Notes: generated from the sequence alone by a model not told the origin. Shown: positions 2,138 to 63,467, counted from the whole stretch's first letter. The stretch is DNA of 63,600 bases, filler included, from Rhabdomonas costata (GCA_019059605.1; 35 parts of 35 records of this genome joined end to end with filler, not necessarily neighbours in it); one strand, 5' to 3'. Numbers and translations are program-made.

Positions 2138-3097
2138 GGGCAGACGTCAACCTACTCAATGGCTACGGCGCCACTCCTCTTCACGTCGCGGCCTTCAACA
2201 ACACTGCCGCTGTCGCTCGCGAGCTCCTGGATGCAAGTTGGATCGCCCCGACCCACCCTGTTTTTTTCCTTATCTCATCAGGCATGTTACCAGCTTTCCT
2301 GGTATAGAGTAGCTCTTGATTCATGCCAGTCCGTGAGGTCGAGGGAAAGGAGATTTGAATTCCCAGTTTACTTGCAATCATTTTGTTGTGAGTGCCCGCA
2401 ACGTGCTGAATATTCTGAAGATAATCTTCCAGTTAATGGAAAAGGTGGACATTGGGGGAACATCAGAATATTTACGCTGGGCAGGCAGAATCCATTATCT
2501 ATGTCTTATTTTCTGTTTGTGTAGGGGCGAGTGTCGCCATTGTAGGGCCCGACCTGGCGGAGACTCCTCTACATCACGCCGCCCTGAAGAACTCTGTCGC
2601 GGTTGCACAGGCTCTTCTGGACTCAAGTGAGCTTGCCTCGCCTGAGCTTTTGTCCTTTCCCCCTTCTTCGTACACTCAGCGAGTGTGCATGCAGGGCACA
2701 GCTTCTTAATTCGATCCATCGAGCTCCCGACTGATAGATTCGTAATCAAGACAGACATTTGGTGCTGGAGTCTGGAGTCTGCTGCTTCCAAGTGCAAATG
2801 TGGAATGTCGTTTTCATTGGGCCTGGCTTTGTTGGTGTTGCTTTGGAGTTGGCTGGTTCACGGTGTTTCTTCACGGAACGCACTGACCAGCTGTATGTTG
2901 GAAGGTGATGAATTTGTTTGCACCTATTCAGCAATGTAGGTCGCTGTCGTTTCCGGCTAAAGGATTTCCCACACCGCACACTTTGCTGGATTTCTCAGAG
3001 GCCGACGTCAACGCCGCCAGGGCAGACGGGAACACAGCCCTCCATGTGTGTGCGATGTGCAACAGCGACGGCCTGATTGGCCCGCTGCGCCGCGCTG
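2138..3097 (+). CDS. Ankyrin-repeat protein, partial; exons 2138-2236, 2525-2626, 2999-3097
   Basis: Spliced translation GADVNLLNGYGATPLHVAAFNNTAAVARELLDA / RASVAIVGPDLAETPLHHAALKNSVAVAQALLDS / KADVNAARADGNTALHVCAMCNSDGLIGPLRRAG. TPLH/TALH ankyrin motifs; GT-AG phase-1 introns. Confidence 0.92.
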
Positions 3098-3863
3098 GTG
3101 AGTGGGGAGATGGGGGGTCATGGGAGTTTTGCTACCTGCAGCTGTGCATTAAATTTCGAAACGTACCTCACCCAGACAAGTGCTTGAGGGAATATGTCTT
3201 TTGGAGTTCACCTTCACAATTGTTCGAAGCGCTCTGCATTTTGAGTGTGCATGGTGTCCATGTTGAGTTTAAAATCGAGAGAGAGGTTACAGCTGTAGCC
3301 CATCGTAAAGATGATTAAAGCAACAACCGTATTGAAAGATGAAGGAAGCCTCAGATGCTTCTGTCTGAGTAGGTCAGCTGACGAGTCGAATGCCCTCCAT
3401 CCCCCCTCCGCCCAACTTAACACCAAAAAAAACCCTGAGGAAAAAAGAACTAACAAGAGCGAGCTATTCTTCTTGGGAGATCCTTTTCTCATTCTCATGC
3501 GCTGTTCTTGAGCGTTGTGCAGACCCAAACACACCAACACNNNNNNNNNNNNNNNNNNNNNNNNNNNNNNNNNNNNNNNNNNNNTTAATTAATTAANNNN
3601 NNNNNNNNNNNNNNNNNNNNNNNNNNNNNNNNNNNNNNNNGTGTTGGGTGTGGTTGGGGGGGGGTGGGGAAGTGGACCTCGAGTCCTCCCCTTGCCAAGT
3701 GCACCCTGTGTGCGTGTGTGCTCCAAGGCGTTTGCTTTTTGCACAGTGCAAGAACAGTTCCGAACAAAGTGGAGCTTGTTTCCTTTTTTCCCCGTCGAAC
3801 GCGGTGGCGCGACCCTCCCCTGAGCTCTGTACATTTGGTCTCGCTCATTTGCGGACGTTCCAG

Positions 3864-8360: not shown

Positions 8361-9380
8361 CTAAAAAAAAGGGGACGGTGCTCACAACTTACCAAGCCAT
8401 TTCACTCTCACCATACCCCACTAAATGGGTGCTTTTTGGGGGTCAGAAAATGATACAGACACCTACAGACACCCTAACCCCAACCCTACTCGATCGAGAA
8501 TTTATATACAGAGTATCGGGTAATACGTTTTATATTAGGAATAAATTTAAGACCTCTGAACATGTGTTTCTAGATAGGATCATCATGACGATGAACATTT
8601 ACCAAGCAAGAAACTCAATCGCCACGCCGTTACTTATTCCTAAGGGGTTTGTGAAAGTATGTCGGTCAAAGAAGTTACACCGCAGGATGGCTTGGCTCCT
8701 CCTGCCAGTGAGGATTTGATGATGAAGATTACAATCTTAGTATCATCTGTGTGGGTGCTCGGATTCGAATCCCACCCGGCCAGTGCTTGGTTACATGACG
8801 TAAACCCCTGCAAACTCTGAGTTGTGTGGACTGAAATTGCAGGAAAGCAAAAACAACATCATCCCGCGTGTAAGTTTTGCTTTGAAGGCGAGGTTGTTTC
8901 AGTCTTGACCTCAACGGGATTTTGGGGCAAGGTAAAGTTCGGACTGGTTCGAGTCTTTCTTGGGCCTGAAGTTGAGATCACGGCCTACAACACCCAACCN
9001 NNNNNNNNNNNNNNNNNNNNNNNNNNNNNNNNNNNNNNNNNNNTTAATTAATTAANNNNNNNNNNNNNNNNNNNNNNNNNNNNNNNNNNNNNNNNNNNNG
9101 GGTGACGCACAGAGAACAGGGACTAAATACACGAGGGGAACCATTGAGCCTGTTGTTTCACATTAGACCCGCCACAGGCAATGTCAATCGTCCACATTGC
9201 AAGGAAAGGGAAGCAAACGCGATGACGGCACAAAACATTGCCACAACACTACAAACCAATGCCACAACAAAGATTCCCTAAGGAAAGAAAATCGATCCCC
9301 ATATACAAAAACCCAACGTCTGACATGCTGCGGCTTCATCTGGTGTAAAATGAACTGAACCGGCTGTGCAAGGTATGCAC

Positions 9381-10081
9381 CCTGGTCTTGGTCTCCACGC
9401 GAACGTGAAGCTCGCGGACCCTGAGGCTGACCCGGCCCGCAAGGCGGGTGCTAATCGGGTTGATGAGATGCAGCCCAGGGTGCTGCAGCTCGCTGAACTG
9501 GCCCCAGCACTCTGTGCACACACGAAGAAGCCCACAGAGAAAAAACAGCGAAAAAGGAAATCAGCTCATGCTGCCAAGCTGCAACCCCGGACCCTAGGCT
9601 CTACTTGAATCACAGAGGACCCACGCATCGCTTACTAGCCACCTGCAATCACTCACCTCTTAAAAACAAACGCGGATTCTACCAGTGCAGGGTACTTATG
9701 GTACCACCCGGTACCCCCTCCCCCACGCACTATTCTTGAAGAGCCTCGTGTCCTCTTTTGCTTAAAAAAAAAAGCTCACGTTCTGGAGAAGCTCCAAGCC
9801 TGTGGGTATGTATTCGCCTGGCCGACAGACTGCGGTTGAAACGAGAGCTGCTGGGCGAAAGCAGGCGAGAGGACTGAACGGCTTCGCATCAGATTAACCC
9901 TAGATCAACCCCAACCCCAGCCCGAACCTAGAAAGCGCCTCAGAGCAGGTGGAACAAAACGGGTCAGCCCGGTCAACCCACTCACAGTTACGCAACTTGT
10001 CCAGTGTCAAATATCAGTATAGCAGCCAAGGACACCTGCAATGCCCACCTCAGACTGAGGGATGGTGTAGCAACAGCCCAT
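9381..10081 (-). CDS. SPFH/band-7 (HIR-like) membrane protein, N-terminal part; exons 10081-10036, 9511-9381
   Basis: Spliced MGCCYTIPQSEVGIAECWGQFSELQHPGLHLINPISTRLAGRVSLRVRELHVRVETKTR. The SLRV..L.V..ETKT motif of HIR/band-7 proteins is present, with an MGCC acylation start. Confidence 0.88.
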
Positions 10082-13501: not shown

Positions 13502-14302
13502 CTTGCACTCGTAGTTTGCAAGGAGGAGGATGCGCATTCGTTCTCGAGATTCCGCCTGCTCCCGCAAGAAAGCCTCGCGCTCGCCCGTGTACAGCTCGGC
13601 GTCCGCCGTGACGCGCTCGTCCAAGTCTTTCTGAGAATGGGTGCGTCCGCAGCAGCACAGATTCTCAGGGGTTTCGGCGGGTAAAAAAATCAGCACGTGA
13701 GCTTGAAGAGTGACAAAAGAATGGCCATAAAACGGCGGGCATTAAAAAGGGAAGCAGGGAAAAGGCAAGAGTTCCAACGACCGGAACTTGAAAAGGCAAC
13801 GCTGCTGACGCAAGTATTCAGAGCTGTCCGGAAGCAAAAGATACAGTGTGGGTGGAAGGGCAGAAGAGGGCAGAAGCAGTGCGAAACAGAAATGCAAGTG
13901 ACATCTTTTCGTTCACAGGAATTTCCAAAAGAAGGGTATTAAAGGTAGTGGGAAGGGGAGCAAGTTACACGACAGGATCCGTGTGTTGTGAGTTGCGCGG
14001 TGGCATGCAGGTGCGCGAGCCGGTCACCAGAAGAATAATATAGGGCTGTGTGTTTTCTGAATCAACGAAAGAAGCTGACAAGCAAGATGCAAGTGCGAAA
14101 AGAAGCTAGAGAATGGCCAAGCACCCACCTTGGCCTCGAGGAAGGTGGAGTACTTCTTCCAGTCCACGGGGGCCAGGCCCTGCCGGGCCCGCTTGCGGTT
14201 GACGGCCCACTGGTGCTGCCAGTCCAGAGCCTCGGACCGCATGCGGGCCTCCTCCGCGTCGATCTCCTGCAGCAGCTCCTGCGCCACGGCGTTGTTCTGC
14301 GC
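13502..14302 (-). CDS. Hypothetical helical protein, two internal exons 14302-14129 and 13630-13502
   Basis: Both exons are AG/GT-bounded, phase 0 and GC3-rich: AQNNAVAQELLQEIDAEEARMRSEALDW...WKKYSTFLEAK / KDLDERVTADAELYTGEREAFLREQAESRERMRILLLANYECK. Confidence 0.65.
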
Positions 14303-16032: not shown

Positions 16033-17349
16033 CTTTATTGAAAGTAACGAACAAGAATACTGGGCCCGAGATTGTCCACTGAAGGAATAAAAACATGCAC
16101 GCTTTCTGAGCACAGAGTGCTGGATCAAACGATGGTACAATCAATTCGAAAGCATGATCAATTAACGACCCCCTGAGCTCCTATTCAAAATCAAACGAGA
16201 GCAAAATACCATTTTCTGGCCTTCAGAAACCGCACTAGAAGATCCCCCACAGTTTCTCCAGAGGTTGCCGNNNNNNNNNNNNNNNNNNNNNNNNNNNNNN
16301 NNNNNNNNNNNNNNTTAATTAATTAANNNNNNNNNNNNNNNNNNNNNNNNNNNNNNNNNNNNNNNNNNNNGGTTTTTGTGCAGCAGCCATGGCAGCAAAC
16401 ACTTGGAGTGAGTGCAATGAGTACAATATTCAGTTGTTGCAAGTGGGGGACATGAAACGTTTAACGTTTAACACCGTTGAACACAAGAATTGTTTCGTGT
16501 TTTCGGGAATTTGTTGTCCAAGCATGGGGGTTAGATAAGTGGGCCTGTACCCACTAGGGGATGTTATTTTTCACGGGGTTTAGGCATACTGTGCCACTGC
16601 CTCCTAGATTTTTAAGTCCTAAAGTTTTCGTTTCGGTCGTTTAACGGTGTTAGGCGTTTAACTGCCCCTCACCAAAACAAATACAATTGCACTACGTGCG
16701 TGTGTCTACGAAGGAGGACGTTTGTGCTTCGCGTGTTCTTGCTGAAGCCTTCTTTCTTATACAACCGCTGGTCCTGGTGTCCCAATAACAGGTCGGTGTT
16801 CTCGTCACTTTCCTCTCCGTTCGTCGTTTGGGCTCGGATTTGCGACTTTCCTTTTGCATCCGCACATGCTCAGGTGCCTTTCTTCTTTGTTTCTTCCTCT
16901 TCCTCCTCCCTGGTACGCCTTCCTCCTCTCAGCTGCGGCTGAACTCTTCCCCTCTTCCTAGTCCGCTCACACCTCTTCCTTGGGATGGAGAAGTCCGAGA
17001 TTGACCGGGCCATCCCCCCTGCCATCGAGTATCCCCGTCAGCCAGGTGCCCCCCTTTCTATTTCCACTTGGCTCCCAGCGTGCTCAGGTTGGAAATCACC
17101 CACCACCTCCCCCAATTCCAGTGACCAGTGTATTTCGCTGGGGAAATAAGAAGGTTTCCTGGCTCATCTCAGAAAAGAAGAAAGAACTAAAACATATTGA
17201 GTCCAACTGGTCATCCAGCAGTTCTGTCCTGTTGATATTGAAGTTTAGCTGAACCTCACAAGTAAGGACCTCGAAACCCGCGTGTTTGGTTTTTTCCTCT
17301 GCCTTTGAGTGTGGGTGTATTCATTGGGCATTATGTGGGGACGTCGCAG

Positions 17350-17941
17350 TGGACGAGGCCCTGGGGCTGCTGAAGAACATCCTGCTACTGATCGGCTTCG
17401 TGATTGTGGTGGTTTTCGTGTTCTTCCCCATCCTCGGGGGCACGGTGTTCCCGCAGTTCCAGGAGCTGTACTACATTTTCGGGGACATTGACCCCTTCGC
17501 CTTTGCAGCTCTGGGGGTTACCCTGGCCATTGGGCTTTCCATTGTGGGCGCGGCGTGGTACCCGCTCACCTTCCTCTCCCTCTCTCTCCCGCTGCCCATA
17601 AACCGCCCAGCCATTCAGCCACAAACCATGACGGGCTTGGATGGCAGCATCTATGAATTTGCGTCTGAATATCGATGAAGGTTTGCCAATAGGTCGACCC
17701 TGCCTTGGGGAGGGCAGAGAGTAACCGGTGCTTGTTCGGAAACAGGAGCCTCAAGCCAACTCCAAAAACTGGTCATCCGGAAATTCCTGAATTATGCCCT
17801 GATGTCGGATGACGGATGGCGTCTTTCTTATCTTTCACGTCGGGCAATTTTGGCAAGTCTCAGGGGGATCTTCCTGACGGGTTCCAGCATCTCGGGGGCG
17901 GCGATCCGCGCGCCTCACATCCGAAGCAAGAACCTCATCAG
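17350..17941 (+). CDS. VMA16: V-type ATPase proteolipid subunit c'' (VMA16/ATP6V0B), partial; exons 17350-17557, 17864-17941
   Basis: Spliced ...[63 protein letters not shown]..G....AP.I..KNLIS plus the extra N-terminal TM helix is diagnostic of c''. Confidence 0.93.
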
Positions 17942-17987: not shown

Positions 17988-18083
17988 TGTTCTCTGTGAT
18001 GTATTTCCGAAGTGCCGTTAGAGCATCTAAAATCTAGGTTTTAGATGCTCTAACGGCACTTCGGAAATACATCACAGAGAACA
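17988..18083. other. Fold-back inverted repeat at a contig end (45-bp arms); likely amplification chimera. Similar cases at 25514-25590, 27040-27221, 36157-36320, 45518-45659, 63534-63599
   Basis: Near-perfect arms that stop at the contig edge, often next to a G/T-only or C/A-only tail. Confidence 0.8.
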
Positions 18084-18221: not shown

Positions 18222-19756
18222 CGCGGAGTGCCCCCAGCGGGGCCTCGGGGGGTGCCCACAGCGGGTCTTGCCGTGGGGGCACAGCTGCACCCACGGCGGT
18301 CGGGCTGAGCCTGGCTCTGAAGGGTCTGCCACAATGGCACAAACCGCGGTGGATGCGGATCAATGATATCACTGCGTTTCGGAGGTTTTCATTGGCTCAT
18401 TACATTATTTCTTTGGTATTCTTTGGTTACAGACCTCCCCTTTAGAGTAAATTCTCTCCATGTGAACGGCACATTCTTCTGACGCCCACCTTCCCGTTCT
18501 TCCGCTGTTGTCTTCCCGTTCACAGCTCGTTTTGTCCCTCTCCACCGGTTTCGCTGCCTCACTCTATTCCCCCAATTCCCCCTCCTCTACTTCCATCACG
18601 CTTCTGACCTCTGGTTTGGTGACTGGAACCTTTTTCATCATGGGCAATTTCCCATCATGTTCTTCACCACGTTCTTGATTGCTTTCCTCATTGCCTTCCT
18701 GGAACGGTATGTTCAGCGCCATTTTGTTGAGTCTTGTTGTTGGTGGGAAGGGCGACATGGTGGTGCAAATGAAGACTGGAGACTGGGTGACCGTCATGGT
18801 GCGCCGAAATCCATCCTGTTGCATCCATCCTGGGAGCCACACCTGCCAGGTTGATCGCCCACACGTCGTTGGCCTCCCCAGTTCCGGTAAGCCCCCCGAA
18901 GACCACCATGGTGGAGCTCTCGGGGTGCAGCACCGCGGCGTGCCCACGGCGCGCGGGCGGGGGCATCCCACAGCCCCCCCACAGGATGTAGAACAACGAG
19001 CTGCATTGCAAAGTCCACACCATCGTCGACGTGGGCTGTGCCGCTGACCAGCTCAAGCTCCACAGGTCACTGGGGGAGGGAGGGGGGAGCAAGCCACCCA
19101 AAAGGGGTGAATCAGCTTTGTCATGAAGTCCAGTGCAGTCGAAAGCATGTTGATGAATAATGTCCTGTAGTATTAAATTGCCGTAAGGGTATCTTGGTCA
19201 GAGATGAATAATACCTGCACGACAGGCAACCAAGCTCCCACACTCAAGAGAATTTCAGGTCTCCGGTGGCGCAGACTGGCTCAGGATGTCTCTTCTGCGG
19301 TGATTGGAAATCGCTGAAGAAAAAGAAGACTCCGTGGATGTGGTGGCTGGTGTTCTTTCATCACAAGTCGAGGGCCAAGCAGGTCCGGGCTTTGTTACAT
19401 CTCAAACACCTCATAACTTGAGAACCCCGGAACTTGAGAACACGTGTGTGCCTGTGTGTATGAGGGGGCGGCGCGTGAAGGAGTGTGGGTTAGCGATCTT
19501 AAACGGTCAGCGATTTGCCTTTCTTCATTCAGCCCATTCTGTCCCCCAATCCAACAACAAGCGATGTGCGGGATTGTGCCTCATTAGGCCGTCCTTGTCG
19601 CTGTAGCCACCGAAGATCACCATTGACGAGGGCCCCACGGCCACCGCGCTGTGCCCACTGCGGGGGTACGCCGCGGGCCCACAGCTGCTGCCGGCGCAGC
19701 CTCGGGACCATGGCAGTCCTTCCACCCCGCCGTAGTCTGCGGCCAGGTCGGCCATC
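18222..19756 (-). CDS. Kelch-repeat protein, partial; exons 19756-19580, 19069-18843, 18325-18222
   Basis: Repeats PRSGHSAVAVGPSSMVIFGGYSDKDGLMSDLWSL, PARRGHAAVLHPESSTMVVFGGLTGTGEANDVWAI and PRPRWGHSA. Phases are consistent. Confidence 0.9.
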
Positions 19757-20016
19757 CTGGGCGACCCAAAACCACCCACGGAGACATCCATGATCATGTG
19801 CAGATACATCTTCATGAAAGCGTTGCGATAATGACTACAGAACTGGTTGAGCCTGATCTGTGTCACAGCAGCCTCAGATGCACACAACCACCCACACACA
19901 CCCAACACNNNNNNNNNNNNNNNNNNNNNNNNNNNNNNNNNNNNNNNNNNNNTTAATTAATTAANNNNNNNNNNNNNNNNNNNNNNNNNNNNNNNNNNNN
20001 NNNNNNNNGGTGGTGG

Positions 20017-21605
20017 GTGTCGTGCTGGCGGAACTTCTCCGTGCGGGCCTTGCTGATGGCCTCCAACTTTGCTGCCTTGGCCTGGCACTCCTTCTCCTTC
20101 TCCCGGAAATCCACCAGGGCTTGCATGTTGGGCTTCATGTGCTTCAGGCTGGATAGTATTATGTAGCATTAAAAGGGGTTGCTTTCAGTGATTCCTTCCG
20201 GTTTCTCATTGAACTTCCTGGGGCCGGGATTCCGAAGGTATGCCTAATATATATATGCGAGGAGGGAGCGGGAGGCCAGGGAAGCCAACTCTCAGGGGGG
20301 AGAGCCTTAGCCTTAGCTTACTTGGGAAGATAAGGTTTCAACACCTTCCTATTGCACTGCTATCTTTTTGGTCCAGATGATGTGTGATTGTAAGCAGCAA
20401 TCCATAAACGTTATGATCATGCCAAAACGAAACAGACCGAGAGATTAAAATTCTGCGTAATCAATGCATCTCGGCCCGTGAAAGTATTACACCATGTCGG
20501 AGATCGCAGTTTTGCTGACAAAGTGAGAGAGATGAGAGAAGGTCTGTCACCCACCTACTGCACTGCTATCGTTTCTGAACCCGGTGGATATCTGATGGCA
20601 TGGTTCTACAGGCAGCATGGTCCCAGGACGAAGGCGTAGCCTCGGATAGAAAACTTTTGCCAAGTGCAGTACCATCCATACTGCTAACCCGGAACCGGAC
20701 ACGATGACAAAGTAGCGAGTAGATTTCCACCCTCGACCACAGGCTTGCTGAGACAGCACACGACTGCCAGGTGTCCAACTTTAGCTTTCAACGAGCTTCG
20801 GCCGGGCAAAACTCCTTTTTTCCTGAGCTAGCTCAAAACTACCCGCTTCCCGATCATGAAAAGGTGATGCGCAGTGTTCTTGGTCGCGTGGTCACCATCC
20901 GAGAAAACAGAGAAACCAAAAAGAGTAAGGCAGAGCTCGTTCGTCTGTAGATGAGCAGTGCGGAAGGGGGCCAGGGGGTGCGTGGATGAGCGGCATGGCG
21001 CGTACTTCTCTTCCAGGACGCGGAGGTCGTACTGGATCCTTTCCATAGCGTACTCCTTCAGCTGCTCCGCGGAAAGCCGTGTGGTGATCGGGCCAGGGGC
21101 AGCGGCGGCCTCGCCAGCCCTCTTCCCGCCGGCAACTTTCTGGCGCTTTGCCGGACGACCTTCGCCCCGCTCTGAAGTAAACGGCCCGTCCGCCCGTCAA
21201 CTCATGCGTGCATATGAAGACCGCATGAGCCACTGTCTGACTGCTGCGGTGTTCTTGGTGAGCGGTGTCTCCAGGCCAGTTAGGTATATTGTGAAAGAAC
21301 AAAATTGCTCGTTCCACAGAACCCTCTAACACGAAGGTGCCACGAAAATCTTCCGGCTCAAAAAAATAAAAAGGGTATGTGTTGGATGCACAGGGTCGCT
21401 GTGGGTGACCGCAGTGGAGAAACGGGACTTAAAGGGTCTGCGTGTGTGTATTTAGCGCTCGCACGCACAGACAGACAAGCATTCTGGAAGCCCCCCTCAC
21501 ACAGTGTACCCCATCTCCACGGGGGAAAAAGGTGGGCACCTCTCCTTCCGGAAGAGTCCTGCGCGGTGAGCTGCTGAGTGTCGAGCTCCTCCTCGTTGTC
21601 CCCCT
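20017..21605 (-). CDS. SMC4: Condensin subunit SMC4-like, C-terminal coiled-coil part; exons 21605-21540, 21171-21006, 20148 to contig end
   Basis: Spliced ...LSAEQLKEYAMERIQYDLRVLEENLKHMKPNMQALVDFREKEKECQAKAAKLEAISKAR, resembling the SMC4 segment L..E.L......I...I..LE.....MKPNL.AI.EY..KE. Assignment among SMC paralogues is by eye. Confidence 0.72.
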
Positions 21606-21652
21606 CTGAGTTGCGGGGAAGGGAAGAGAGAAGGCATGAGAGCTGCTGTGAC

Positions 21653-21769
<117 letters not shown>

Positions 21770-22093
21770 ACACANNNNNNNNNNNNNNNNNNNNNNNNNN
21801 NNNNNNNNNNNNNNNNNNTTAATTAATTAANNNNNNNNNNNNNNNNNNNNNNNNNNNNNNNNNNNNNNNNNNNNGGGGTTTTGCTTTGCACTTTGATGAA
21901 GTCGATGCACTTTTGCAGTTTGCTTACATGCTCAGATACGGCCCTTTGGTGAGTCTTGAACTGAAGTGCTTTTGTTTTGTTTTCTTGCTCTCCAAATTCA
22001 GTAACGGGGAAGGAAAGCAGAAGCCATTGCGATGTAGTTCGCGTCCTTTTGTTGGACTCTTGATCTGAGGGTCTCTGTCTCTCTCTTCGGTAG

Positions 22094-38500: not shown

Positions 38501-40156
38501 TTGCGTAGTAGAATGCGTGCGGTGTTTGTGAACTGGTGCAGACTCTGTCATCCTTTGATTTTGGACAAGTATCATGCCTAACAGCGCGTTATCTGGACAG
38601 CAGTTCGCAGAATTGAGGTTTTCATGGTCTTTTTCCCATAATTTTGTCTTAGCAACTCACCCTTTGTGCTTGCCATTATGCGTCTCAGTAGAATTTATTG
38701 GTTCATGAAAATAAAAATGTCCAGAGCGACATGCACAGCTCACATGGCTCATGGCTCCCAGGAGTCATCGTGCCGAAGAAAAAGAGAACCAGTTCCAATA
38801 CTCCTACAAAGTGCATTGACTTCTGCGCCAACTCCAAATTTCAATTTAAGACGTAAACGTAGTGACCGTTGGGAGAACAAATTGTGCACGCAAACCCACC
38901 TTTCCGTTGGCACCACTTTATTAGGAACAGTGCTCCGCTCCACTAAGGAAAAAGGGGAGGCAAAGCTATGACCCATCTTACATATTAAAATCATACCGAC
39001 AATCTGATTTCTTGTTCTGTTCTTGCTCTGTCACACTGTGCCAAAAACACACACCAGCAGTCGAACAGAATGGAATATTGTGCGCTCAAAGCCAGGCATT
39101 CCGGACTATTACTGGTTGTCATCCTGGAGGTGTTTTTGCTTCTTTTTGGCCTTCTTTTTCGTACGTGTATCCATGCCTTACTTTGTGATAATGGGTGGGA
39201 TAATGGGGGGGGGTCCGGAAAGTAATTTCAGATGTTGTTTTCCAACGCGACATTGCGCCGCATCTCGTCCGGCCACAAATTTTCACAAGGCAAACATCCA
39301 CACAGGTGTATGGTTGTATTGCACAGATGCAGTGAGACGTCCTGAGATGAAGGCTATTCTGGACCACACACACACACACACACTGAGCTGGGTGTGAGGC
39401 CATTTCAACACTGCAACATTATAACAATGTTGGAGAGCGAAGCCGAAGCAGGTTCGGGGTCTTTGTATAACAAAGGAATTCCCGAAATGCTGCGAGGCCG
39501 GTCCTTGCATCCCCACTCGTGAACCTTGGCGGCCTTTCCCTTAATTTTACTTCATGCGCCTCTTCTTTCTCCAGCGCAGCGGAGGACGGCTCTCACAACG
39601 TATTTATCAGAAAAAGAAAGCGTCGTTCGTTCGCAAAGTATAATGTGCCCTAAAGCAGAGCAAAGAGCAATACCTTCGGTTGCTCCTGCTGACAGGTCGA
39701 AAATCCACCGTGCCCACTTTTGGCAAGCAGGGGCCAGGCTTATCACCGTCCCCATGCGAGGCACTCAGCAAGGAAAGCTCTGAGAAGTCTGACCCCGGCT
39801 GCGAGGTGAAAAATGGCTTTCTTATTACAACCATCACTGCTTGTGTGTTCGAAGGGACGGGCTGTGCACTGGCCTGCAGATATGAAAAAATCGCTAATTC
39901 TCAGATTTGGGGATGTTACTAGGCTCATTTCATTTCCTGTTTTCACACCAAAACCCNNNNNNNNNNNNNNNNNNNNNNNNNNNNNNNNNNNNNNNNNNNN
40001 TTAATTAATTAANNNNNNNNNNNNNNNNNNNNNNNNNNNNNNNNNNNNNNNNNNNNGGTTTTGTTTTCAGTGTCATGGAGTGTTTCTTCTCTCTAATTAA
40101 AAATGTCCGTGAAAGAAAACCCATTCCAAGGAGGACGTGAATGTCTGCGGGCATAC

Positions 40157-41443
40157 ATCCTGGCCGAGGATGATTTCAGGAGCACGGTACTCGCGGGTCT
40201 GTGCGGTGATGCCGTAGTCGAAGTTGGCGGCAATGTGAGTATTTGGGTGGATTTTCATCACAGGAGGGGCCAAGGGGTGATTCCGCGTCAGCACCATCTG
40301 AGAAGCACCCCCCCCCCCTTCCTCCCTCAAATACGGCAAAACTAAAACTGCAGCAAGCAAAACCCACGGGGAGAACGAAAGGAACACCTCAAAAGCGGCA
40401 TGGCACCTAAGCGCAAACGTGCCAAAAGTGCCGCTACTATGTCGTGTCCAAAAGGACACGTCATACCGCCAAGCCGAAGTCGCACAGCAACACATCCGTG
40501 TCTGGCTCCTGCAGGCTCACCCGCTTGGGCGTGGGGGTGCTCGGTAAAAGGTGTTGTGCGGGCGCCTTGCCCTCGATCACACTGGAGGAGGTGGTGGAGG
40601 TGGTGGTGGTGGAAGAGGCGTCTTCGCAAAGCCCAAAGGCAAGCCTGTGAAGCCCGCACCAACAGAAACCGAAAGACTCCCCTCCCGTCGCCAGACAAAG
40701 AACAAGAGGCGGCAAGGACTTAAACTCTTTTCATACGATTGCCCCTCACTCAACTCACTTTTGCGCGAGATGCGCTGAAGCCACCAACACCGATGTAAAC
40801 ATACACCGACGGGGGCCCACCCAATCCATGGCGGTGTCTACGCTGTCCGGGGTTCCCCGGCACCCCCCCAGAGTTCCTCGCCTGAGAATCACAGGATACA
40901 CAAAGAGATAATAACGCTTCCACTGCGGTCCGACTCAGAACGCACAACGGCAAGGTCACAGCCAATTACAAGACAAGCAAATGAATCTGGGGTGGTGGTG
41001 GCGGAATAGAATACCGAAAGTTGACAAAAGGAGCGGGCTTGGCCGTTTCCACATGAGAGAGGATGTTGACCGACACCTTGTTTGAGCTGAAAGGCACCAA
41101 AAGGAACCAAATGACCCGAGCAAGCGACCGAGTAAGCGAGCAAGCACCCCCCCCCCACATTGCAAGTGTCCAAAATCCAGCACAGCACCGAAGAGTGGAA
41201 GAGAAATGGAGGGGAAGGGAGGGCTTCAATCCTTTCCGTGCAAGAAGGTGAACAGAGTGCATGACAACACGTCCAAGACGTCTGCCTTGCGTTGAGGTGC
41301 ATTTTGCAGAGCTTCTACGGCGCAGCAGCTGTACAGACGAACACGAGGAAAACGTTCACAAAAAGCCGCAAAACACCTGGATAATGGGATGTTGTTCCTG
41401 TGGCTCAAAGGACTCCGGGTGACGGCAGGAGCATAGCACTGAA
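40157..41443 (-). CDS. SRPK-like (CMGC) protein kinase, partial; exons 41443-41377 (tentative), 40644-40467, 40297-40157
   Basis: DVLLCDFGLA followed by QTREYRAPEIILG (SRPK-type activation-segment end), with a low-complexity spacer before DFG. Confidence 0.88.
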
Positions 41444-43203: not shown

Positions 43204-43588
43204 ATGGCCAAGCAAGTCTCATTGGCGCACATCCCCACAGAGATTCCAGCGCCGAAGTACGCGGACGACGACTCCCCACTGAGCTCTCCCGCCCAACACC
43301 GCCGGCACTCGCTGGTGGTGGGCTCGCGGAGCACCGGGAAGCTCGCCAACCCCCCCTTCCGCCTCCCCCACGCCCTCTCCGATGGAGCCCTGCTCCGCAC
43401 CCGTGCCCGCTGCGAGGCCCCTCTGTTCCAGGCCCTGCTCTCCCGGGGCAACAAGACTGGCTCCGCCATCCCCCTGATCGACAGTCTGTATGACCATGAG
43501 TACGGCAGTGATCACGAGCACGACCACGAAGACAGCAACAGCAGCGACACCACTCCAATGTCCTCGGCCCACTCCATCTCTCCTCCCA
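43204..43588 (+). CDS. N-terminal exon of a hypothetical protein (MAKQVSLAHIPTEIPAPKY...)
   Basis: GCCATGG start, then a GC3-rich open frame to the contig end, preceded by a pyrimidine-rich tract. Confidence 0.6.
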
Positions 43589-45949: not shown

Positions 45950-47226
45950 GGGCCGCAGCATCCAATCATCCTCTTGACGAACAGACCCTTTGGGGTACTT
46001 GGACATCCGCCTAAACCATGCTCTCAACTGGCCTTGTGAGCTCTCTCGCCGCCCACCACTGACCGAGAAATCGGCCAAACACTTCATCGATACGCCGGCG
46101 TGGGCCCTCGCCTGAATGCACATTTCACAATGTACAGAAACGCTTGTTTGAACGCCGACATGTGCTGCAGATTCGCTGGGCCCGTATAAACTGATCCCGT
46201 ATAAACCCATCACGACTCCCATCCGTTGCTCGTCGGACGCCAGGCTGTCCTGCGCTGGGTAGCGGATGATTCGGATGGGGTACGACTCCCCCCGCTGCAG
46301 CAACTGGGTGGTTATTCGGCTTTTCCCATCCTTCCCCTCTCCCCACGCGATCTTCATTCCGAGGTACTCGAGCACCCCTCGCTGCTTTCTAGTGCTCTTG
46401 TATTCCATTCCGTATTGGGATGTGGTGGGATATTTTCCCGTCATGGTCAGGATATCGTCGATAAACCTAACATCTTCAGGGTTGCATGTGCTCGCAAAGT
46501 CTCACTCAGGTATGTAACACGCAAGATTCGCCAATTGTGGGGCACACTGAAGGCCCAAACCAAACCCTTTAACTTGCCTCTTTATCCTGGTACCCGTTGT
46601 TCACCACGAACGAACGAATACTCCGTTAATGAGCATTCTCAACACCACCAAGAGGTGGGAAGAAGTTGTTCACCACAAACGCCACCAACTCGTGTACTTC
46701 TTCCCGCGTCCACCCCCAATTGACCTGCTTCACCCGTGTCCTTGACCCAGCTTTTCCTTGAGAGGCGCAGATGCTCACCTTCTTTTTGTTCTTCGTATTG
46801 CCAGGCTTCCTCAACTGCTTCGGCAACTCTCTTTCGTAGAAGCTCTTGGTCGAACTTGGGGTACATTGTGATGAAATTGATCGTGTCTGCTGCTTCTCTC
46901 CATTTGTCGAGATTCTCTGCCTTGAATCGGATCGGCTGCACCTCCTCCTCCACACTCATGACAAACCATGCCTTTTTGGGCTCTCCCCTGTCCATGCATT
47001 CCAAATCCTTCTGCTTGAGGCTATCCACCACCTGATTCAGGACTCCCACAGGTTCCGTTCCCGCTCCAGCGACGGAGCGCTGGGGCTTCTCTCTGACCCC
47101 TTTCTGCTTCTCGCTTTTCGTTTTCTTGACTCCTGAGATTATCCTTTTCCACTCTTCCAGATTCCATATGTGTAGGGGAGCCTTTCTTTCGTTTCCAGTC
47201 CTCGCTTGACAAGGAAAGTTCCCCAA
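45950..47226 (-). mobile_element. Decayed Penelope-like retroelement reverse transcriptase
   Basis: ADTINFITMYPK (DF..MY motif), WT.EEV.ELV.FVVNN, RQVKGFGLGLQCAPQLANLACY, RFIDDIL, YLGMKI, and IIRYP..DS......GV...QFIRAQRICS. In-frame TGA and frameshifts; no introns. Confidence 0.82.
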
Positions 47227-47336: not shown

Positions 47337-48843
47337 ATGGAAGTGGGCAGCGTGATGGTTCGCAAGGTGGTCAGCATCATGTTCGCGGACATTGCGGGCT
47401 TCTCGACGCTATGCGAGCAGATCCTCTCTGAAGAGCTGGTGCTGCTGATGACGCAGTATGTTCCTCTCTTTTGTTTTGCCCCCCCCCCTCCAGCTCACCC
47501 AGCCGGAGTGCACTCGGAAGCATTGTCATTCCTTCGTATCACCCTGCGAGTGCCGGTAATGGGGCCATTGGGTTTCGGAAACAGGGGGCAAACGTATTTC
47601 TCATAGGTCGCGTGTGGGACAACCTCCGGCTGCTTTCGTCTGGCGTTGACGGCTCCTACTTTTTGAGCATTTAGGTTGCTTCTCCCGTTGTTATCCGCCA
47701 GGTACTTGCAGTCAATGTGTGAGGCGATCATCCACTCCAAAGGAACTTTAGACAAGGTCTGCTATCCGTCCGTTTTTTCACTCCCATCTTTTCCACCCAC
47801 TCTATTTGCCCACTCTTGTTCAGTCAGTGTTTGGTTAGAACCACCGTCGACCCAGGACCCAGGAAGGCTCCCTCTGTGCGACGGGCTTTGTTTGAAGCTT
47901 TCTGTGTGCTCTTCTTTCACCGTTCTCTCATGTCACCTCCCCATTATTCGTTTCTGTTTTTTCCAGCAGGGCTTGTACCACCACGGGGTCATTTTCATAG
48001 CCTTTCCTTCTGCTTTGCAGTTCATTGGGGACTGCATCATGGCGCTGTGGAACGCCCCGCGCTCCGTGAAGGGCTACCAGGCGGCCTCGGTAGGGGCGGC
48101 AATGGAGATGCAGCGGAGGCTGGTGGCTCTGTGGGAGGAGTGGGATGAGGCGGGTCTTCCTCAAATCCGGTGTGCGTGCGCGTTTCGCTGAAGGCAGAAC
48201 GACGTCCACGATAAGAACGCCTCGTCTTGAGAGATTTTTGGCCGTTCGAGCTGGGGCGCTTTGAACGGACTTCTCGTTTTTGTCGGCATCTTTTATGCAC
48301 ATACGGGTTCGCGTGAAATGGCCGGTGTTGATGCAGAAAGTTCGTTGCCCTTCGCTTGTTGGTGGATTATTTTTCAATGAGTTTGCGTCGCTTTTTCACG
48401 AGGCCGAGAGCGCTGATTTGCACCGCAAAGTTGCTTCCTTCTTTTTCTTTTTCCTTTCCGCAGAATGCGTATAGGCATCAACACCGATGCGGTGCTGGTG
48501 GGCAACGTGGGCTGCGAGCACCGCATCAATTACACCTGCCTGGGTACTGCTGGCGTGTTTCTTTCCGTTGGATCGCAGCCGCTGGTTTGCTGCCACATTA
48601 TCTCTTGGGCTGCTATCTTGTGACTTTGTGTGGCGGAATTGCCGCAAGGTGCATATGTTTTTCAACTCACCTGTGCCAGCCCAAGAGCTGTTGATACAAA
48701 TATCCAATGTAATAGACTTTTCTTCGTTCCGCTTTTAACACATTGTCCTATTGCATCAGTCATCCTTGTGTCGTAGAATGCGTATTCCGGCTGCAACAGG
48801 TGACGGTGTCAACTTGGCAAGCCGCCTCGAAGCGATGAACAAG
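47337..48843 (+). CDS. Class III adenylate cyclase catalytic domain; exons 47337-47455, 47702-47756, 48021-48169, 48464-48543, 48800-48843
   Basis: Spliced VSIMFADIAGFSTLCE...YLQSMCEAIIHSKGTLDKFIGDCIMALWNAP...[42 protein letters not shown]. All introns are GT-AG and in phase. Confidence 0.95.
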
Positions 48844-49585
48844 GTGTGTCCTTTTCTGCTCGCATCTCCCTTTTGGTCCGAAACCAGGTCACAATCTGAC
48901 GAATCTCTTTCTGAAAGCTGAGATAGGAGAGAGGTGGCGTTTAAGCTACGTTCTCCGGCGCAATATTTTTTGGCAGGGGGGGATAGGATGTTCCCTCACC
49001 TTCTCCAGATTCCAGGTTTGAGGCAATTCTGCGCCCAACCCCACCNNNNNNNNNNNNNNNNNNNNNNNNNNNNNNNNNNNNNNNNNNNNTTAATTAATTA
49101 ANNNNNNNNNNNNNNNNNNNNNNNNNNNNNNNNNNNNNNNNNNNNTTTTTTGTTTGCTGTCAGGTGCTTAGCACCTGACATTATGGGTGGACGAGTTATT
49201 GCCTCTGTCTTTTGCAAATGTCGCTATACGGTTTAGCGGTATAGTCACCGGTCCCCATCTATCCTTGCGCCGGGGACGGTCCGTGTCTTCTGCCGTAGTT
49301 TAATCGTACTCGTAATCTCTTCAAGTCTCTGACAGGCAAGCTTTGCAACACTCCCGCACAACTCGCAGGTTGCGACGCGTTTACCCCCCCCTCCTCCTCT
49401 TCTACAAGTCGCGCCATGCAAAGAAGAGTCCAAAACACAGAGGCAATAGGCCTCTATCTGATCAACCAGATTATTCAGTGGTGGCGATGGTGCAGTACGT
49501 GGTGCGCTGCCCCGAGCTCTTGATCTGTGTCATCGTTGCATGGTGGTGTGTGTGTGTGTGTGTGTGTGTTGGGGCTGCAGAGCAG

Positions 49586-58133: not shown

Positions 58134-58321
58134 AACCCNNNNNNNNNNNNNNNNNNNNNNNNNNNNNNNNNNNNNNNNNNNNTTAATTAATTAANNNNNN
58201 NNNNNNNNNNNNNNNNNNNNNNNNNNNNNNNNNNNNNNCATCCTTCGTTCCTCTTCATTCTTTTTTTTTGGTGGGTGGGGGTGGAACGATACCTTTCAGA
58301 AGCGTAAGAAAACAAGCGAAC

Positions 58322-59689
58322 CTCTAGAGTGACTTCGGAGGTTCGATCAGAGCTGTGGTCGTCCACAACGATGCACTCAAAAGTGAATGCGGGCTTCTCT
58401 GCTGACCTGTAAAGCATCACGTTGGGTACGGGTGTGTCATTCAAAGAAGCAGTGAATTGTAACCCGCTTACTAAACGAGAGAGTTCATGCCGAGACAAGC
58501 ACACCCAAATACAAGCAAAGCGCACCCGAGAGGAGCGAGAAACACAATTACCGCTGATTCAGATAGGACAGGGTCTCCTCCAGCATAATAGGCAAACGTT
58601 CCTGCAAAAAGAAAATGCAAACCGCACACCCGACGAATTGCTTAGGAGCTCTTGGGACCGGGAAGGACCCGCCGACCCACATCATGGCCTTCACCCCAGG
58701 CTCCATAGTCTTCGATATGTGTATGTGTTCCCCTTAAGAGGACAAACAACCCACCCTCTCTCGACTCTAATTGCAGAGGAGTCCGCTATAAACCACGAAA
58801 AAAAAAAGCAGAGACGCTGCAGACAGGCGTGCAGATGGAAGGGGGACAAGGGGACATGCACCTCTTCATTGTACGCAGGAATGACCACGGATAGGCTGAG
58901 TCTCGGAGGCAGGTGCATAGTGGCGGTCAGGTTTGGCGCCGGGACCGTCTTGCCAGGGTCGGCAGGGTCGACAAAGAAGATCTTCGCGTCACTGCACTTC
59001 TGGCGTAGATACCTTCGGCTTGCAACAGCACTGCGGCAAACAAAAGGAGCGTGAGTTGTACGATTCTGATTCGACTGGATGCATGTCTGTGTTTGCCACA
59101 CCCCACCCACCAGTCTTTTGCGTGTGCGTGGGGGCGCACTCTCTCCTCCCTGGGCCAGCAGTGTGCGGTTGGCTCGGGCATTTTCTTTGCATCAGCCCGA
59201 AGACGTGAAATCCGTTCGGAGCCGAACGCGCGCGCCGTTTTCGCGGTTTTTCCCGTGTCTCAGGTTCCCAACGCAGCGCGCGTGCACACAACAAACACAT
59301 ACACACACCGTGCAATATTTCAACCACACTGTACACGCCATCTCGCCCCGCACTTGTGCCTTCCTTGCCACATTCCATATATCGTGAGTGAGTCTCATGA
59401 GTGAGTGAGTGAGTGAGTGAGTGAGTGAGTGAGTGAGTGAGTGAGTGAGTGAGTGGGATGATGATGTTGTTTTTGCAGTCAACCGCAGGTTAAGAATGGT
59501 CGACTGGCTAATCCCTACAATGCGCATTCCGAAAGACATGTCATCGGTAGATCCGGCAAACCTGACTGCAAATATTAAGCACCATAGGATGTTCCACAAG
59601 ACGAAGCACGTCCGGCAGGCCGAGAGGGAGGCCACTTCCACGCCGAAAAAGACCCCGAAGATGAGAACATCATTGGAGAGGTAGGCCAT
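58322..59689 (-). CDS. ALG5: Dolichyl-phosphate beta-glucosyltransferase (GT2), N-terminal part; exons 59689-59562, 59030-58862, 58601-58552, 58406-58322
   Basis: N-terminal TM region, then [28 protein letters not shown]...FTFECIVVDDHSSDRT, the ALG5 pattern. Confidence 0.88.
59399..59454. repeat. (GAGT)n microsatellite, about 14 units, in ALG5 intron 1
   Basis: Direct reading. Confidence 0.95.
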
Positions 59690-62431
59690 AATGTCCTACT
59701 CCCAGTATTCACTTCGAAAACATAAAAAAAAGTCTAAAACCCGAACCCAGAGAAATCTTCGCAACGCCGAACAGAGAGAGATTTCAGAGAGATATCTGTA
59801 AAAAATCCACCAAAAAGGAAAGCCCAGGGCAGAGCAGGAAGGCTGAGACAAAGCGGGCGGGGGCCCTTGCGGCAACCCATCTATTTGGGTTCTCCGCAGC
59901 TAGGCAGTCCACGAATAATTACCAAACACACTCAAAACATTTCACCACTTTCGGAAAGTTCCCTTNNNNNNNNNNNNNNNNNNNNNNNNNNNNNNNNNNN
60001 NNNNNNNNNTTAATTAATTAANNNNNNNNNNNNNNNNNNNNNNNNNNNNNNNNNNNNNNNNNNNNCGTCTGCGTGCTGCAGGCCCCTTCCGTTCGAGCAC
60101 CCATGGGCTGCACACGTCTTTAGATAGGAGCAGCTTTTCATTTTCATTTCACCCCACAAATATACGCCGCGAACAAACACTGCTGTCCCAAACACAAAAG
60201 ACATTCCCACTCCCCTTCGTTGTGTCTTTGCAGTGTGGCTGGAGGTTGGCAGGTGCTCACCCCATTTTCGGCGTTTTGGCCTCCTAAACGGGTGGGTTTT
60301 CCCGTGAACCTGTTTTACCTCTGCTTCCTGCCCTTCGCTGGGCTTGGCGACCGCATTTCTGTCGGCGGGCGGCGTTGCTGCGATGGCGCCATCTTTGACA
60401 GACTTGGGGGACTGATATTATTTTGTGCCGATATTTTAATGGAATGGGAATGAGATCTGGCGACTCATCTTTCATCGCATCGCAGCCAGCGCCAGCGGTG
60501 AATGAAGCCTGCCTCTGAGTGTAAGGCTGGGAGGTAATGACTGCCCCGCCCCGTGGTGTCCAAAAGGGCTCAGAGAGAGTGAGCGTATGAGAAAGAGTAG
60601 GAGAGCCAAAAGTTACTGATGGCAATTGCAGTGTGTTTCCTCCCATATACATTGTAGTAGAGCAATAAATAATTGAACGGTACGGTTCCAACATCCCCAA
60701 ATTACCCCTGAAAACCCACACAAAGAAGTGCGGGCTGGTTGTGCCAAATCTGCCGCTTACTTCGTGTCGCTGGAGTCTAGTTGGCGTAGAATCTCTACGT
60801 GGCTGCGCACCACGGCCGCGACCTCAGCGGAACCGATGGGCCGTGAAATGCTCTCAGACAGCAGCGCCTTCAGGTGGGCTACGATCTAAGATCAGCACCA
60901 CACACCACACACCTGGGAACAAAAAGTTTCCAGCAAGCGCCCCACACCCCTTTGAGCATATACGCCGTTACCTGGAAAAGCCACAGCGTGAGATGAGTAA
61001 ATGACGAGAACCACTGGTGTTGGAAGGATGCACAGCAGTGATCCTATTTTCGGAGTGACCGTGAATTTCAACCTGGTCTTCCGTCAGCAATCTGCGAGAA
61101 GCCCCCCTCATCTTCACCCAGCGTTCATCACAGCCTGGTTTCCCCTTCTCTGCTTCCAGTCATTGGTACCACTGAGCCCATTTTCATACCTTGTCATAAG
61201 TCCAGAACGACACATAGGACGCCCCCAAAAAAGTCTCGCGGCCACACCTAAACTATTTGTTCTCCATTGCTCGGTCTGTTCTCCCTTCAGCGGTTGCACG
61301 CCCACGTGAATTCTTCTGTGTGAATGTGGGTCTTTTTTCAACTGTTTCTTTGTTTCTTTGTGTTCTGGTTCGTGTGCCTGTCCTTTCACCCCGCGGGCTC
61401 TGCCTGTGGGCCTTCCGCGCAATCATGCCCGTCGTCCTTCTGAATGGTCTCTCTCGTTGTGCTTGCTTGTTGTGGCTGATGTTACCGCTCTCTTGGCTCA
61501 GGTGCTGTTCGTGCGTCCCTTGTGTTCTGGTTGGACTCTATAGCCTCCTTTAATGGCTCGTGATGGTGATGCGTGTTGCGGTGGTGCGATGGTGTGTTGC
61601 AAGTGATCTCTCGTTCTCCTGACTTCCGACTGATCCTTCCTCCCAACCTTTCCGTCCTCCGATTCTAGTCTTCGTTCCGTCCACCTCTCCATCCTACCTG
61701 TGCAACTAGATTCTTGTCCGCTATCCATTCTCCCTTGATTTTCGCCAAATCATCGCTCCCCCCAACCCCACACACACCCAACANNNNNNNNNNNNNNNNN
61801 NNNNNNNNNNNNNNNNNNNNNNNNNNNTTAATTAATTAANNNNNNNNNNNNNNNNNNNNNNNNNNNNNNNNNNNNNNNNNNNNGGAGAGTGTTGCCGAGC
61901 AGATAGCTCAGGTCCCTTTTTCCTTTGATTCTCCCTGCTTCTTATGCATCACCTTCGATTTCGCTCCGTCCAGCCTTCGTCTTGTTCCCACTTATTCCCT
62001 TTTTTCGTTCTCCACCGTTCTTAATTGGGTATCTGGTTTGTCTTCTTCCGACGAGTGAAAAAACCAGCTTCTCCCCGGTTCCGAGTTCTGGCGAAGCTGT
62101 GGCCTGTGCTGATTGGCCAAGTATGCAGCCACCAACCCCGTCAATTTTCAAAACCATTCAATAAGGTTGCACAAGAATGCACAACAAAATGCCGTACATA
62201 AATAGCTGGCTCCATTGGTGCATGTGTTGGCGCCCGGCACAAATCAAGCTCAGGGTTTGCTTTTGCGGCTGCTGACATCGGTGCCCGGCTGGTCCGTACT
62301 GTGATAGAGGACTTTAGCTCAAAACAGGTGGCCAGCAGCGACAGAGCCAAAGCTTCTGGTGTCATGTGGTGGTGACGGTGGGGTGTTCGGCTCGGGCTCT
62401 GCTGTTTTCGTGGGTTGGGGCTGGATCTCAG

Positions 62432-63467
62432 CTACTCCGGCGCCTGGCCACGGTGGTGTTGGCGATCCCGCCCAACAACAAGCCCATTCTCAGTGCGATT
62501 CTGGAGCAGCTCATCGCGGCGCTGCGCCGGGGCCACCCCAAGCTCTCCCGCCACGCTCTGCTGTGCCTGAGGGTGCTGGTGTTCCGGGTGGAGTCGCAGT
62601 ACCTGGCCTCGCTGTGGCCAACTATCATGGCAAGCCCGCACGCGTCTGCACTCACTCCCACAGCGTGTGCCCAACCAGCCAAAGGATACCAGGGTCTGCT
62701 CAGAAGGCTTGCAGGTTCAAGAGAGCAAGGCACAGGTAGGTCACCGTGTCCCTTGAACCTGCAAGCCTTCTGAGCAGCGGCCTAATTGCCGTTTGAGGAA
62801 CGAGTTTGGTGGGGTGGGAGGTGGTGTTATCCGTGGGGGCCGGCAGGCTGCATTTTCTACGGCCATGGGGTGCAACTTGCTCGGGAAACAGCGCCTTTCT
62901 CACCACTCGAAACCTTGGGGAACCTTGAGAATGCTATCGAACCCACCTCCTTGGGCTCTGCCGTGGCTCTCCACGAATGCGCGGGAACTGCAGACCCAGC
63001 ATTGAATGATCGAAGACAATGCCCAGAAACGACGAAAAAACGCACTGGGAATCTTGCTACTTTCCTGCGCTTCGCGGCCCATTTTGAAAAAACGCCAGAG
63101 AACATTTGCATCGCCTCCCTTCTTTTAAACTTGCATCTCATCTCTTATGTTTGGTGGGGTTAGAGAGACCTTTTTGCTACCACCCTAAGCAATCTTAAAT
63201 AGTGTCCCCGGTAAAGCGGAACGGCCTCCTCTCTATCTCTCTCGGCGCGCTACACCACAGGAGGAGGTGATCCGCCTCCTGAACAGCAGCGGGCTCTTGG
63301 ACCTCACCGCCCCCCTGGTCACCAGCCCGGAAGGAGCCTCCCCCCAGCTGCTTCACCTGGAGGTAGTGCTGGAGGCGCTGAAGTTGACGGAGCTTGCCGA
63401 GGCCGCACTGCCGTTCCCGTTTCACGTCTTCCAGTGGATCTACAGCCGCACCTCCACCCCGGGGCAG
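62432..63467 (+). CDS. DOP1: Dopey (DOP1) family protein, C-terminal region; exons 62432-62629 and 63261-63467 (GC-AG intron)
   Basis: LLRRLATVV...ILEQLIAALR...ALLCLRVLVFRVESQYLASLWPTIM-EEVIRLL...LEALKLTELA....PFHVFQWIY. This follows the Dopey C-terminal pattern LKRLAF...RVLLLR.SP..L.SLWP.M..EL...ACK.LD....F..Y.W.F. Confidence 0.82.

Follow-up and report, generated by a model that had tools for sequence, protein, structure and literature searches.

Weak, probably lineage-typical 5' splice sites in conventional introns of the euglenid Rhabdomonas costata

We analysed the 5' splice sites (donors) of introns in a stretch of 63,600 nucleotides (nt), hereafter the window, from the draft genome of the euglenid Rhabdomonas costata (GCA_019059605.1). 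An initial annotation had proposed that donors here carry little information, are often GC and favour a pyrimidine at +4, and had ascribed this to a divergent U1/U6 sequence or to recognition largely through exon-side and structural cues. The reading we prefer, with a probability of roughly 0.8, is that these are ordinary conventional euglenid introns with a weak donor typical of the lineage. The window consists of 35 separate and unrelated contigs of 1,715-1,766 nt each (~1.72 kb), joined by 34 artificial linkers of 100 nt of the form N/TTAATTAATTAA/N (at 1722-1821, 3541-3640 and so on), so that features on different sides of a linker have no physical linkage. The span 2138-63467, which was taken at the outset as one stretch, crosses the 34 linkers and is not one locus.

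Ten contigs were read in three frames, and a junction was placed where family motifs, phase, in-frame stops and a pyrimidine tract followed by AG agreed; the coordinates were verified by script. The resulting core set comprises 22 donors, spread over 10 of the 35 contigs, with 17 complete introns of 145-857 nt. GT/GC-AG served as a search criterion, and the border counts below are partly circular except at the three junctions of a V-ATPase c'' gene that are fixed by a protein, eukprot:RCo003969 (P0005, 226 residues). This transcript-derived protein joins the three c'' exons exactly, and it is at these 3 of 22 donors only that a mature coding sequence matches the removal of the intron. Twelve more donors have some match in a flanking exon, and seven are weaker. 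Adding seven uncertain donors to the core set gives an extended list of 29. A home-made gene finder combining codon bias with GT/GC-AG borders was tried and dropped, having misplaced two of the three protein-proven donors. The core set is as follows, with the donor hexamer in each line.

17046-17349, plus strand: V-ATPase c'' intron 1, GTGCCC, ends CAG; junction between QP and VDE fixed by P0005
17558-17863, plus strand: V-ATPase c'' intron 2, GTACCC, ends CAG; junction between AAW and GIF fixed by P0005
17942-17947, plus strand: V-ATPase c'' intron 3 donor, GTCTTC; intron passes the contig end; P0005 continues from LIS to IIFCEA, whereas the genomic read-on is unrelated
47456-47701, plus strand: adenylate cyclase intron 1, GTATGT; placed by phase and motif
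47757-48020, plus strand: adenylate cyclase intron 2, GTCTGC; junction between ...GTLDK and FIGD
48170-48463, plus strand: adenylate cyclase intron 3, GTGTGC; flanking exons collinear with 3r5g_A
48544-48799, plus strand: adenylate cyclase intron 4, GTACTG; junction between ...YTCLG and DGVNLASRLE, by phase and motif
48844-48849, plus strand: adenylate cyclase intron 5 donor, GTGTGT; incomplete, lower confidence; cyclase-like until ...EAMNK, then unrelated
2237-2524, plus strand: ankyrin-repeat intron 1, GTTGGA, ends TAG; fits repeat and phase
2627-2998, plus strand: ankyrin-repeat intron 2, GTGAGC
3098-3103, plus strand: ankyrin-repeat intron 3 donor, GTGAGT; intron incomplete
62630-63260, plus strand: DOP1-like GC-AG intron, GCAAGC; acceptor CACAG in phase 0; border slides by 1 nt
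19070-19579, minus strand: Kelch-repeat GC-AG intron, GCACAA; lower confidence; border slides by up to 2 nt
13631-14128, minus strand: intron of an unknown gene on contig 8, GTGGGT; phase 0, acceptor TCTCAG; lower confidence
9512-10035, minus strand: Band 7/HIR-like intron 1, GTGTCC; removal gives MGCCYTIPQSEVGIA-E-CWGQF..., by phase reading
9375-9380, minus strand: Band 7/HIR-like intron 2 donor, GTGCAT; incomplete, lower confidence
58602-58861, minus strand: family-2 glycosyltransferase (ALG5-like) intron 1, GTGCAT; junction between ...VVIPAYNEE and ERLPIML
58407-58551, minus strand: family-2 glycosyltransferase intron 2, GTAATT; in-frame TAA within the donor
21172-21539, minus strand: coiled-coil intron on contig 12, GTGCCC; open frame and phase only, lower confidence
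20149-21005, minus strand: coiled-coil intron on contig 12, GTACGC; sole possible acceptor past an in-frame stop, phase fits; lower confidence
40298-40466, minus strand: protein-kinase intron, GTATGA; ...CDFGLA, then an in-frame stop within the donor
40151-40156, minus strand: protein-kinase next-intron donor, GTATGC; incomplete, lower confidence; kinase-like until ...APEIILGQD

The firmest of these junctions are on contig 10, where the open reading frame (ORF) 17253-17675 matched P0005 at 99% identity in an alignment covering half of this exon-2 ORF, and tblastn placed P0005 residues 1-20, 21-91 and 92-116 on three exons, exon 1 with 100% identity. In the cyclase gene, exon 1 corresponds to positions 8-34 of Pfam Guanylate_cyc and the alignment of exon 3 with the adenylate cyclases 1wc0_A and 3r5g_A starts at the exon's first residue; exons 3 and 4 match 3r5g_A residues 57-104 and 110-134, collinear and with none missing. 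The ankyrin gene has one repeat per exon, with all three exons matching Pfam Ank and the same phase in all three. Pfam matches were likewise obtained for exon 2 of the Band 7/HIR-like gene (Band_7 positions 15-52), exon 3 of the glycosyltransferase gene (Glycos_transf_2 positions 26-45), exon A of the DOP1-like gene (DOP1_C 239-303, through ...WPTIM) and both Kelch exons. Exon 1 of the glycosyltransferase gene is tentatively assigned to family 2 (ALG5-like) on account of a sequence motif. For the second Band 7/HIR-like donor, the family match ends at ...VETKTR, GTGCAT is the first GT after it, and a stop lies 13 codons further. The exon following the first kinase intron aligns weakly with residues 192-209 of the SR protein kinase Sky1p (E 0.58). 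On contig 8 a rival pair, GTGCTT with an acceptor ending AAAG, fits too. An SMC-like reading of the contig 12 gene found no support in Pfam or PDB, and the donor at 21005 (minus strand) was therefore ranked as weak.

Across the 22 donors, beyond the GT itself, the most informative position is the last base of the exon, which is G in 17. With correction for small samples, the information amounts to ~0.96 bit at -1, 0.34 at +3, 0.08 at +4, 0.19 at +5 and 0.28 at +6. The base at +3 is a purine in 19 donors (A 9, G 10), +4 is C in 8, T in 8, A in 4 and G in 2, and +5 is G in 12. The scarcity of GTRAG, of which three cases had been claimed initially, is borne out, since just 2 of 22 donors read so. 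GTRTG occurs in 5, three of these being GTATG. At +4, where the initial claim was of C or T in 29 of 37 donors, pyrimidines are indeed frequent here (16/22, and 21/29 in the extended list); their excess over chance is a different matter, to which we return below. A is clearly not preferred at +4, and a positive preference for pyrimidines is weak. Cues on the exon side receive some support from the G at -1, with its information of about 1 bit.

Twenty of the donors are GT and two are GC. The latter share is compatible with a frequency of 6.3% (p = 0.41), while one of 1% fits it less well (p = 0.02); for the 4 in 37 reported initially the corresponding values are p = 0.20 and p = 0.0005. Two of those four GC donors were re-derived. 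GCAAGC at 62630 is well supported: a phase-0 GT is absent ahead of the stop, the acceptor is in phase 0, and the DOP1 homology of exon A ends at ...WPTIM; exon B has no Pfam match. GCACAA at 19579 on the minus strand is plausible from the spacing of Kelch motifs, the splice yielding ...FGGYSDKDGLM-S-DLWSLSW with the usual Kelch spacing. The other two did not stand. The only copy of GCTCGC beside a readable gene, at 2215, lies within the first ankyrin exon and does not suit the phase: splicing there would leave phase 0, which meets a stop codon downstream of the sole acceptor (AG at 2523-2524). GTTGGA at 2237 fits both repeat and phase. For GCCTGC we found no junction placement. Altogether, six of the nine hexamers quoted initially fall on sites that we considered independently, five of them in the core set (on the plus strand GTGTGC at 48170, GTACCC at 17558, GTCTTC at 17942 and GCAAGC at 62630, and on the minus strand GCACAA at 19579) and one, the minus-strand GTTCGC at 58321, only in the group of seven uncertain donors. 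The figure of about 37 donors inside recognisable domains was generous: in a Pfam scan of all 662 stop-free ORFs of at least 55 amino acids (aa) in the window, a match at E <= 0.01 was found in just 9 of the 35 contigs, and we did not reach 37 donors.

The listed introns are conventional, that is, U2-type spliceosomal, because all of them end in AG and their ends do not pair. All 17 complete introns have the AG, as CAG in 16 and TAG in 1. For the pairing of the ends we followed a published design in which 10 nt from each intron end are joined by a loop and folded, and as control each 5' end was combined with the 3' ends of the other introns. The mean folding energy was -1.15 kcal/mol with 6 of 17 introns at zero, compared with -1.27 kcal/mol and 41% at zero in the control, so that the structural cues suggested initially find no support. 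CAG at +4 to +6 is absent from all 22 donors, as is the U12-like TATCC at +2 to +6. The 20 nt preceding the AG in the 17 introns contain 105 C, 118 T and 117 purines out of 340, which looks rich in pyrimidines, with many C. No borders other than GT/GC-AG occur among the listed introns, although no search aimed at such introns was made.

How do these introns compare with those described before? In Euglena gracilis, 11,527 GT-AG, 659 GC-AG and ~16,150 nonconventional introns have been reported, with a GT-AG consensus of GTGTG in which five of five bases pair with the organism's own U1, one of them as a G-U wobble; among its GC-AG introns only the G at +5 stands out, its pyrimidine tract is C-rich, and its nonconventional introns carry CCAGG between +3 and +7 and CCTG between -9 and -6 (Gao et al. 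2024, BMC Genomics). The R. costata introns share with the conventional ones of E. gracilis a weak 5' GT-AG consensus featuring T at +4 and G at +5, a similar portion of GC-AG introns (~5% of conventional introns there, 2/22 here), a CAG 3' end with apparently many C in the pyrimidine tract, and unpaired ends (zero energy in 35% there and in 6/17 here). They differ in that C equals T at +4 and A comes near G at +3, and in the low number of GTGTG donors (2 of 22). The two species also differ in that E. gracilis introns are mostly nonconventional, whereas R. costata seems nearly devoid of such introns, just seven candidates being left after manual inspection (Soukal et al. 2021, Sci Rep). The same study describes the conventional introns of R. 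costata as GT(GC)/AG, with 29 of 29 complete introns in six marker genes being GT/AG, and its Table S2 lists, among ~11,418 rows, 9,461 GT-AG rows (GTAG 4549 plus CTAC 4912) and 634 GC-AG rows (GCAG 308 plus CTGC 326). The share of GC-AG among the GT/GC-AG rows of that table is 6.3%, with which our small set agrees; the paper gives terminal dinucleotides only. In the papers searched, the supplementary PDFs of Soukal et al. 2021 excepted, no logo of R. costata donors at positions +3 to +6 came to light, and Soukal et al. 2021 was the only one to deal with the introns of this species. Nonconventional introns of euglenids and diplonemids, whose hallmark is CA(G) at +4 to +6 (Milanowski et al. 2014, 2016), come from the same lineage and likewise have C frequently at +4; they are unlike the introns listed here in having no GT/GC-AG borders, paired ends (CAG with CTG) and a removal thought to be free of U1 (Milanowski et al. 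2014, 2016; Thakur et al. 2025), features of which none was seen here. The donors of the window also resemble the yeast GTATGT through their T at +4 and G at +5, although the yeast donor is near-invariant and highly informative and GTRTG here is one weak flavour among several. In yeast, the T at +4 and the G at +5 of GTATGT pair with the U6 ACAGA box.

We propose that these introns would be removed by standard two-step splicing on a U2-type spliceosome, with no unusual machinery needed. The 5' site would be a weak one, composed of an exon-end G, GT (GC in ~6%), a purine at +3, a slight tendency to T or C at +4 and, in roughly every second site, G at +5, and the 3' end would consist of a C/T-rich tract followed by CAG. 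The exon-end G with GU and the purine at +3 presumably pair with U1, and by extension from E. gracilis the 5' end of this lineage's U1 likely pairs with donors of the GUGUG type; such a lineage-specific fit at +4/+5 is published for E. gracilis and would have to be transferred to R. costata. The ACAGA box of U6 perhaps reads +4 to +6, where U-G at +4/+5 would suit it, if yeast genetics is a guide. The low information at +3 to +6 might then be offset by the exon G together with 3' signals and spliceosomal proteins, and GC donors would be the usual minor variant at ~6% rather than ~1%. A U1 fitted to the donors of the lineage would on this analysis be something already known and not new, since the GTGTG of E. 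gracilis pairs with its own U1. The initial annotation's caveat that the pattern may be lineage-typical was the right reading, and the data from both E. gracilis and R. costata agree with it. Its proposal of a divergent U6 gains no support, the U6 of E. gracilis being highly similar to the human one over the internal 58 bases (Gao et al. 2023).

Several points weigh against this reading. The sample is tiny and mostly hand-placed: 19 of the 22 donors rest on a reading of motif, phase and stop codons, 7 of these being weak, and the per-exon support from Pfam and PDB is thin (E 0.001-0.6), with none for the contig 12 exons or DOP1 exon B. Full GTGTG is found in only 2 donors and GTRYG in 6, and the protein-proven GTGCCC, GTACCC and GTCTTC all have no G at +5, from which it follows that pairing with a U1 of the E. 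gracilis type would be short at many sites. Random GT sites of the window have a pyrimidine at +4 in 53.7% of cases, and measured against these the excess among the donors is marginal (16/22, p = 0.055); in the better-supported subset, computed with a contig 12 donor that was later demoted still counted, the figure is 11/16 (p = 0.17). These last figures raise the possibility, which we consider doubtful without finding it far-fetched, that +4 is simply unconstrained, with no preference for A and a pyrimidine count that mirrors base composition. The meagre information at this position and the equal numbers of C and T would fit such a view. It is opposed by the extended list (21/29, p = 0.03) and by the 29 of 37 counted initially (p = 0.0017 against random GT), by the consensus from 11,527 E. 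gracilis introns, which includes T at +4 (Gao et al. 2024), and by the association between neighbouring positions, six of the eight donors with T at +4 having G at +5, against one of the eight with C (Fisher p = 0.04).

Let us assume, alternatively, that the flat logo is an artefact of annotation, hand-placed donors lying a few bases off and the true consensus being stronger. Low information holds as a description of our small set, and misplaced donors would flatten a logo too; the errors of the naive gene finder at two of three proven donors, the rival phase-compatible GT sites at several junctions, and the failure of GCTCGC at 2215 all illustrate how easily this can happen. However, even the three donors proven by the protein bear little resemblance to GTRAG, the stop-forced GTAATT and GTATGA and the cyclase-collinear GTGTGC do not read GTRAG either, and misplacement would not yield the observed enrichment of G at -1 (17/22) or of purines at +3 (19/22), which makes this explanation improbable. 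We regard as still more improbable that donors which have C at +4 but lack G at +5, together with the two GC donors whose borders can slide, mark nonconventional or intermediate introns, removed without U1 in a structure-dependent manner. Among the marks of nonconventional introns, C at +4, mostly as part of CA at +4 and +5, is conserved best (Milanowski et al. 2014, 2016), and CA at these positions is seen in GTGCAT (twice) and GCACAA. Yet the CAG at +4 to +6 is in none of the donors, no matching TG or CTG was seen at -8 to -6 of the 3' ends, the ends pair no better than the control, all introns end in AG after what looks like a pyrimidine-rich tract, and only seven candidates survived manual inspection in R. 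costata (Soukal et al. 2021). Conventional euglenid introns with a weak, lineage-typical donor thus remain our preferred explanation.

The association between +4 and +5 noted above deserves separate consideration. Donors with C at +4 have a base other than G at +5 in 7 of 8 cases, where the background frequencies are TG 33.5% and CG 20.7%, and in the class grouping used here the three protein-proven donors are all assigned to the kind that has C at +4 and lacks G at +5. With 22 sites the pattern could be noise; it could also reflect a second donor flavour. Rather unlikely in our estimate, but worth spelling out, is the idea that R. costata uses a GTRTG class, friendly to U1 and U6 as in E. gracilis and yeast, beside a GTRCC/GTGCAT class in which +4 is C and +5 is not G. 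If so, donors of the latter class would be limited to three or four base pairs with a U1 of the E. gracilis type, and R. costata might have a U1 whose 5' end is unlike that of E. gracilis, for example one in which a G faces +4 and can pair with C as well as U. Another option would be that a second variant of U1 exists; diplonemid U1 is conserved, with one variant reported in one species (Thakur et al. 2025). Recognition could also be independent of U1 pairing beyond +3.

Recognisable genes are few in the window. Pfam families matched are ankyrin, Kelch, AAA_5 and DOP1_C, with weak matches to Band_7, zf-PARP, F-box, Guanylate_cyc and Glycos_transf_2. On contig 31 (54604-54936, minus strand) one long exon that reaches the contig end encodes a midasin/dynein-type AAA domain (Pfam AAA_5), the relatives found in a protein search being 48-63% identical. 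Contig 24 (43204-43584, plus strand) carries the start of a serine/histidine/aspartate-rich protein whose function is not known, with 98.4% identity over 127 residues to P0008 (237 aa) and 127 codons free of introns. As in the c'' exons matched by P0005, whose prefix RCo probably denotes R. costata, mismatches amount to 1-2%, and a different strain or a close relative would be compatible with that. P0008 came from a second pooled alignment, against a representative library, which gave two matches and no further junction; the other, P0007, is a relative that ends at the exon end of the contig 8 gene (exon identity 83%). A first pooled alignment of five exons from five contigs gave no match among 7,556 candidates of 141-2000 residues. 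Long protein-like ORFs on the minus strand of contig 26 (45581-46501, 307 aa, and 46642-47226, 195 aa) and of contig 17 (29289-29741, 151 aa) have no Pfam match and may represent fragments of mobile elements or of lineage-specific genes. Contig 12 has at its end a long trinucleotide repeat, (GTT)n/(AAC)n (21640-21774), that translates as poly-N, poly-L, poly-V or poly-C and yields a false coding score. No Rfam family, and no small nuclear RNA, was detected in the window at gathering thresholds; at E <= 1 Rfam returned hairpin artefacts only, some of them called microRNA-like on both strands.

Two features of the contig ends are read as traces of whole-genome amplification and of assembly, not as biology. 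A run of at least 8 bases made of G and T only begins 24 of the 35 contigs (for example 3641-3669 and 19881-19908), and one of A and C only ends 18 of 35, with the opposite alphabets in 0/35 and 0/35; such stretches cover the first and last 8-29 bases of most contigs. They look like remnants of degenerate amplification primers, and hence not genomic, the identity of the primer being a guess. Perfect hairpins with arms of 23-63 nt, probably chimeric artefacts of amplification or assembly, are present at or near 5 of 70 contig ends, as follows.

17988-18083: perfect hairpin
36157-36320: perfect hairpin
63534-63599: perfect hairpin
27099-27162: perfect hairpin
27383-27464: perfect hairpin

These contig ends fit the published account of the R. 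costata draft genome as very fragmented and obtained from amplified DNA (Soukal et al. 2021).

In summary, the observation that donors in these contigs are weak is largely real and lineage-typical, and its interpretation is essentially published euglenid knowledge. The novelty is limited to extending the picture of +3 to +6 to a second, heterotrophic euglenid with a very small sample, and its importance is slight outside annotation. There, however, the practical consequence is direct: in euglenid assemblies, donor models trained on GTRAGT of animals or plants will fail, GC donors at ~6% must be allowed, and the usable information lies mostly in the exon G followed by GT, the purine at +3 and the 3' CAG. 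Euglenozoa are already at the extremes in intron loss, trans-splicing and spliceosome-independent introns, and if the two donor flavours considered above were to hold genome-wide, they would offer a simple comparative test of the co-evolution of U1 and the 5' splice site within this group.

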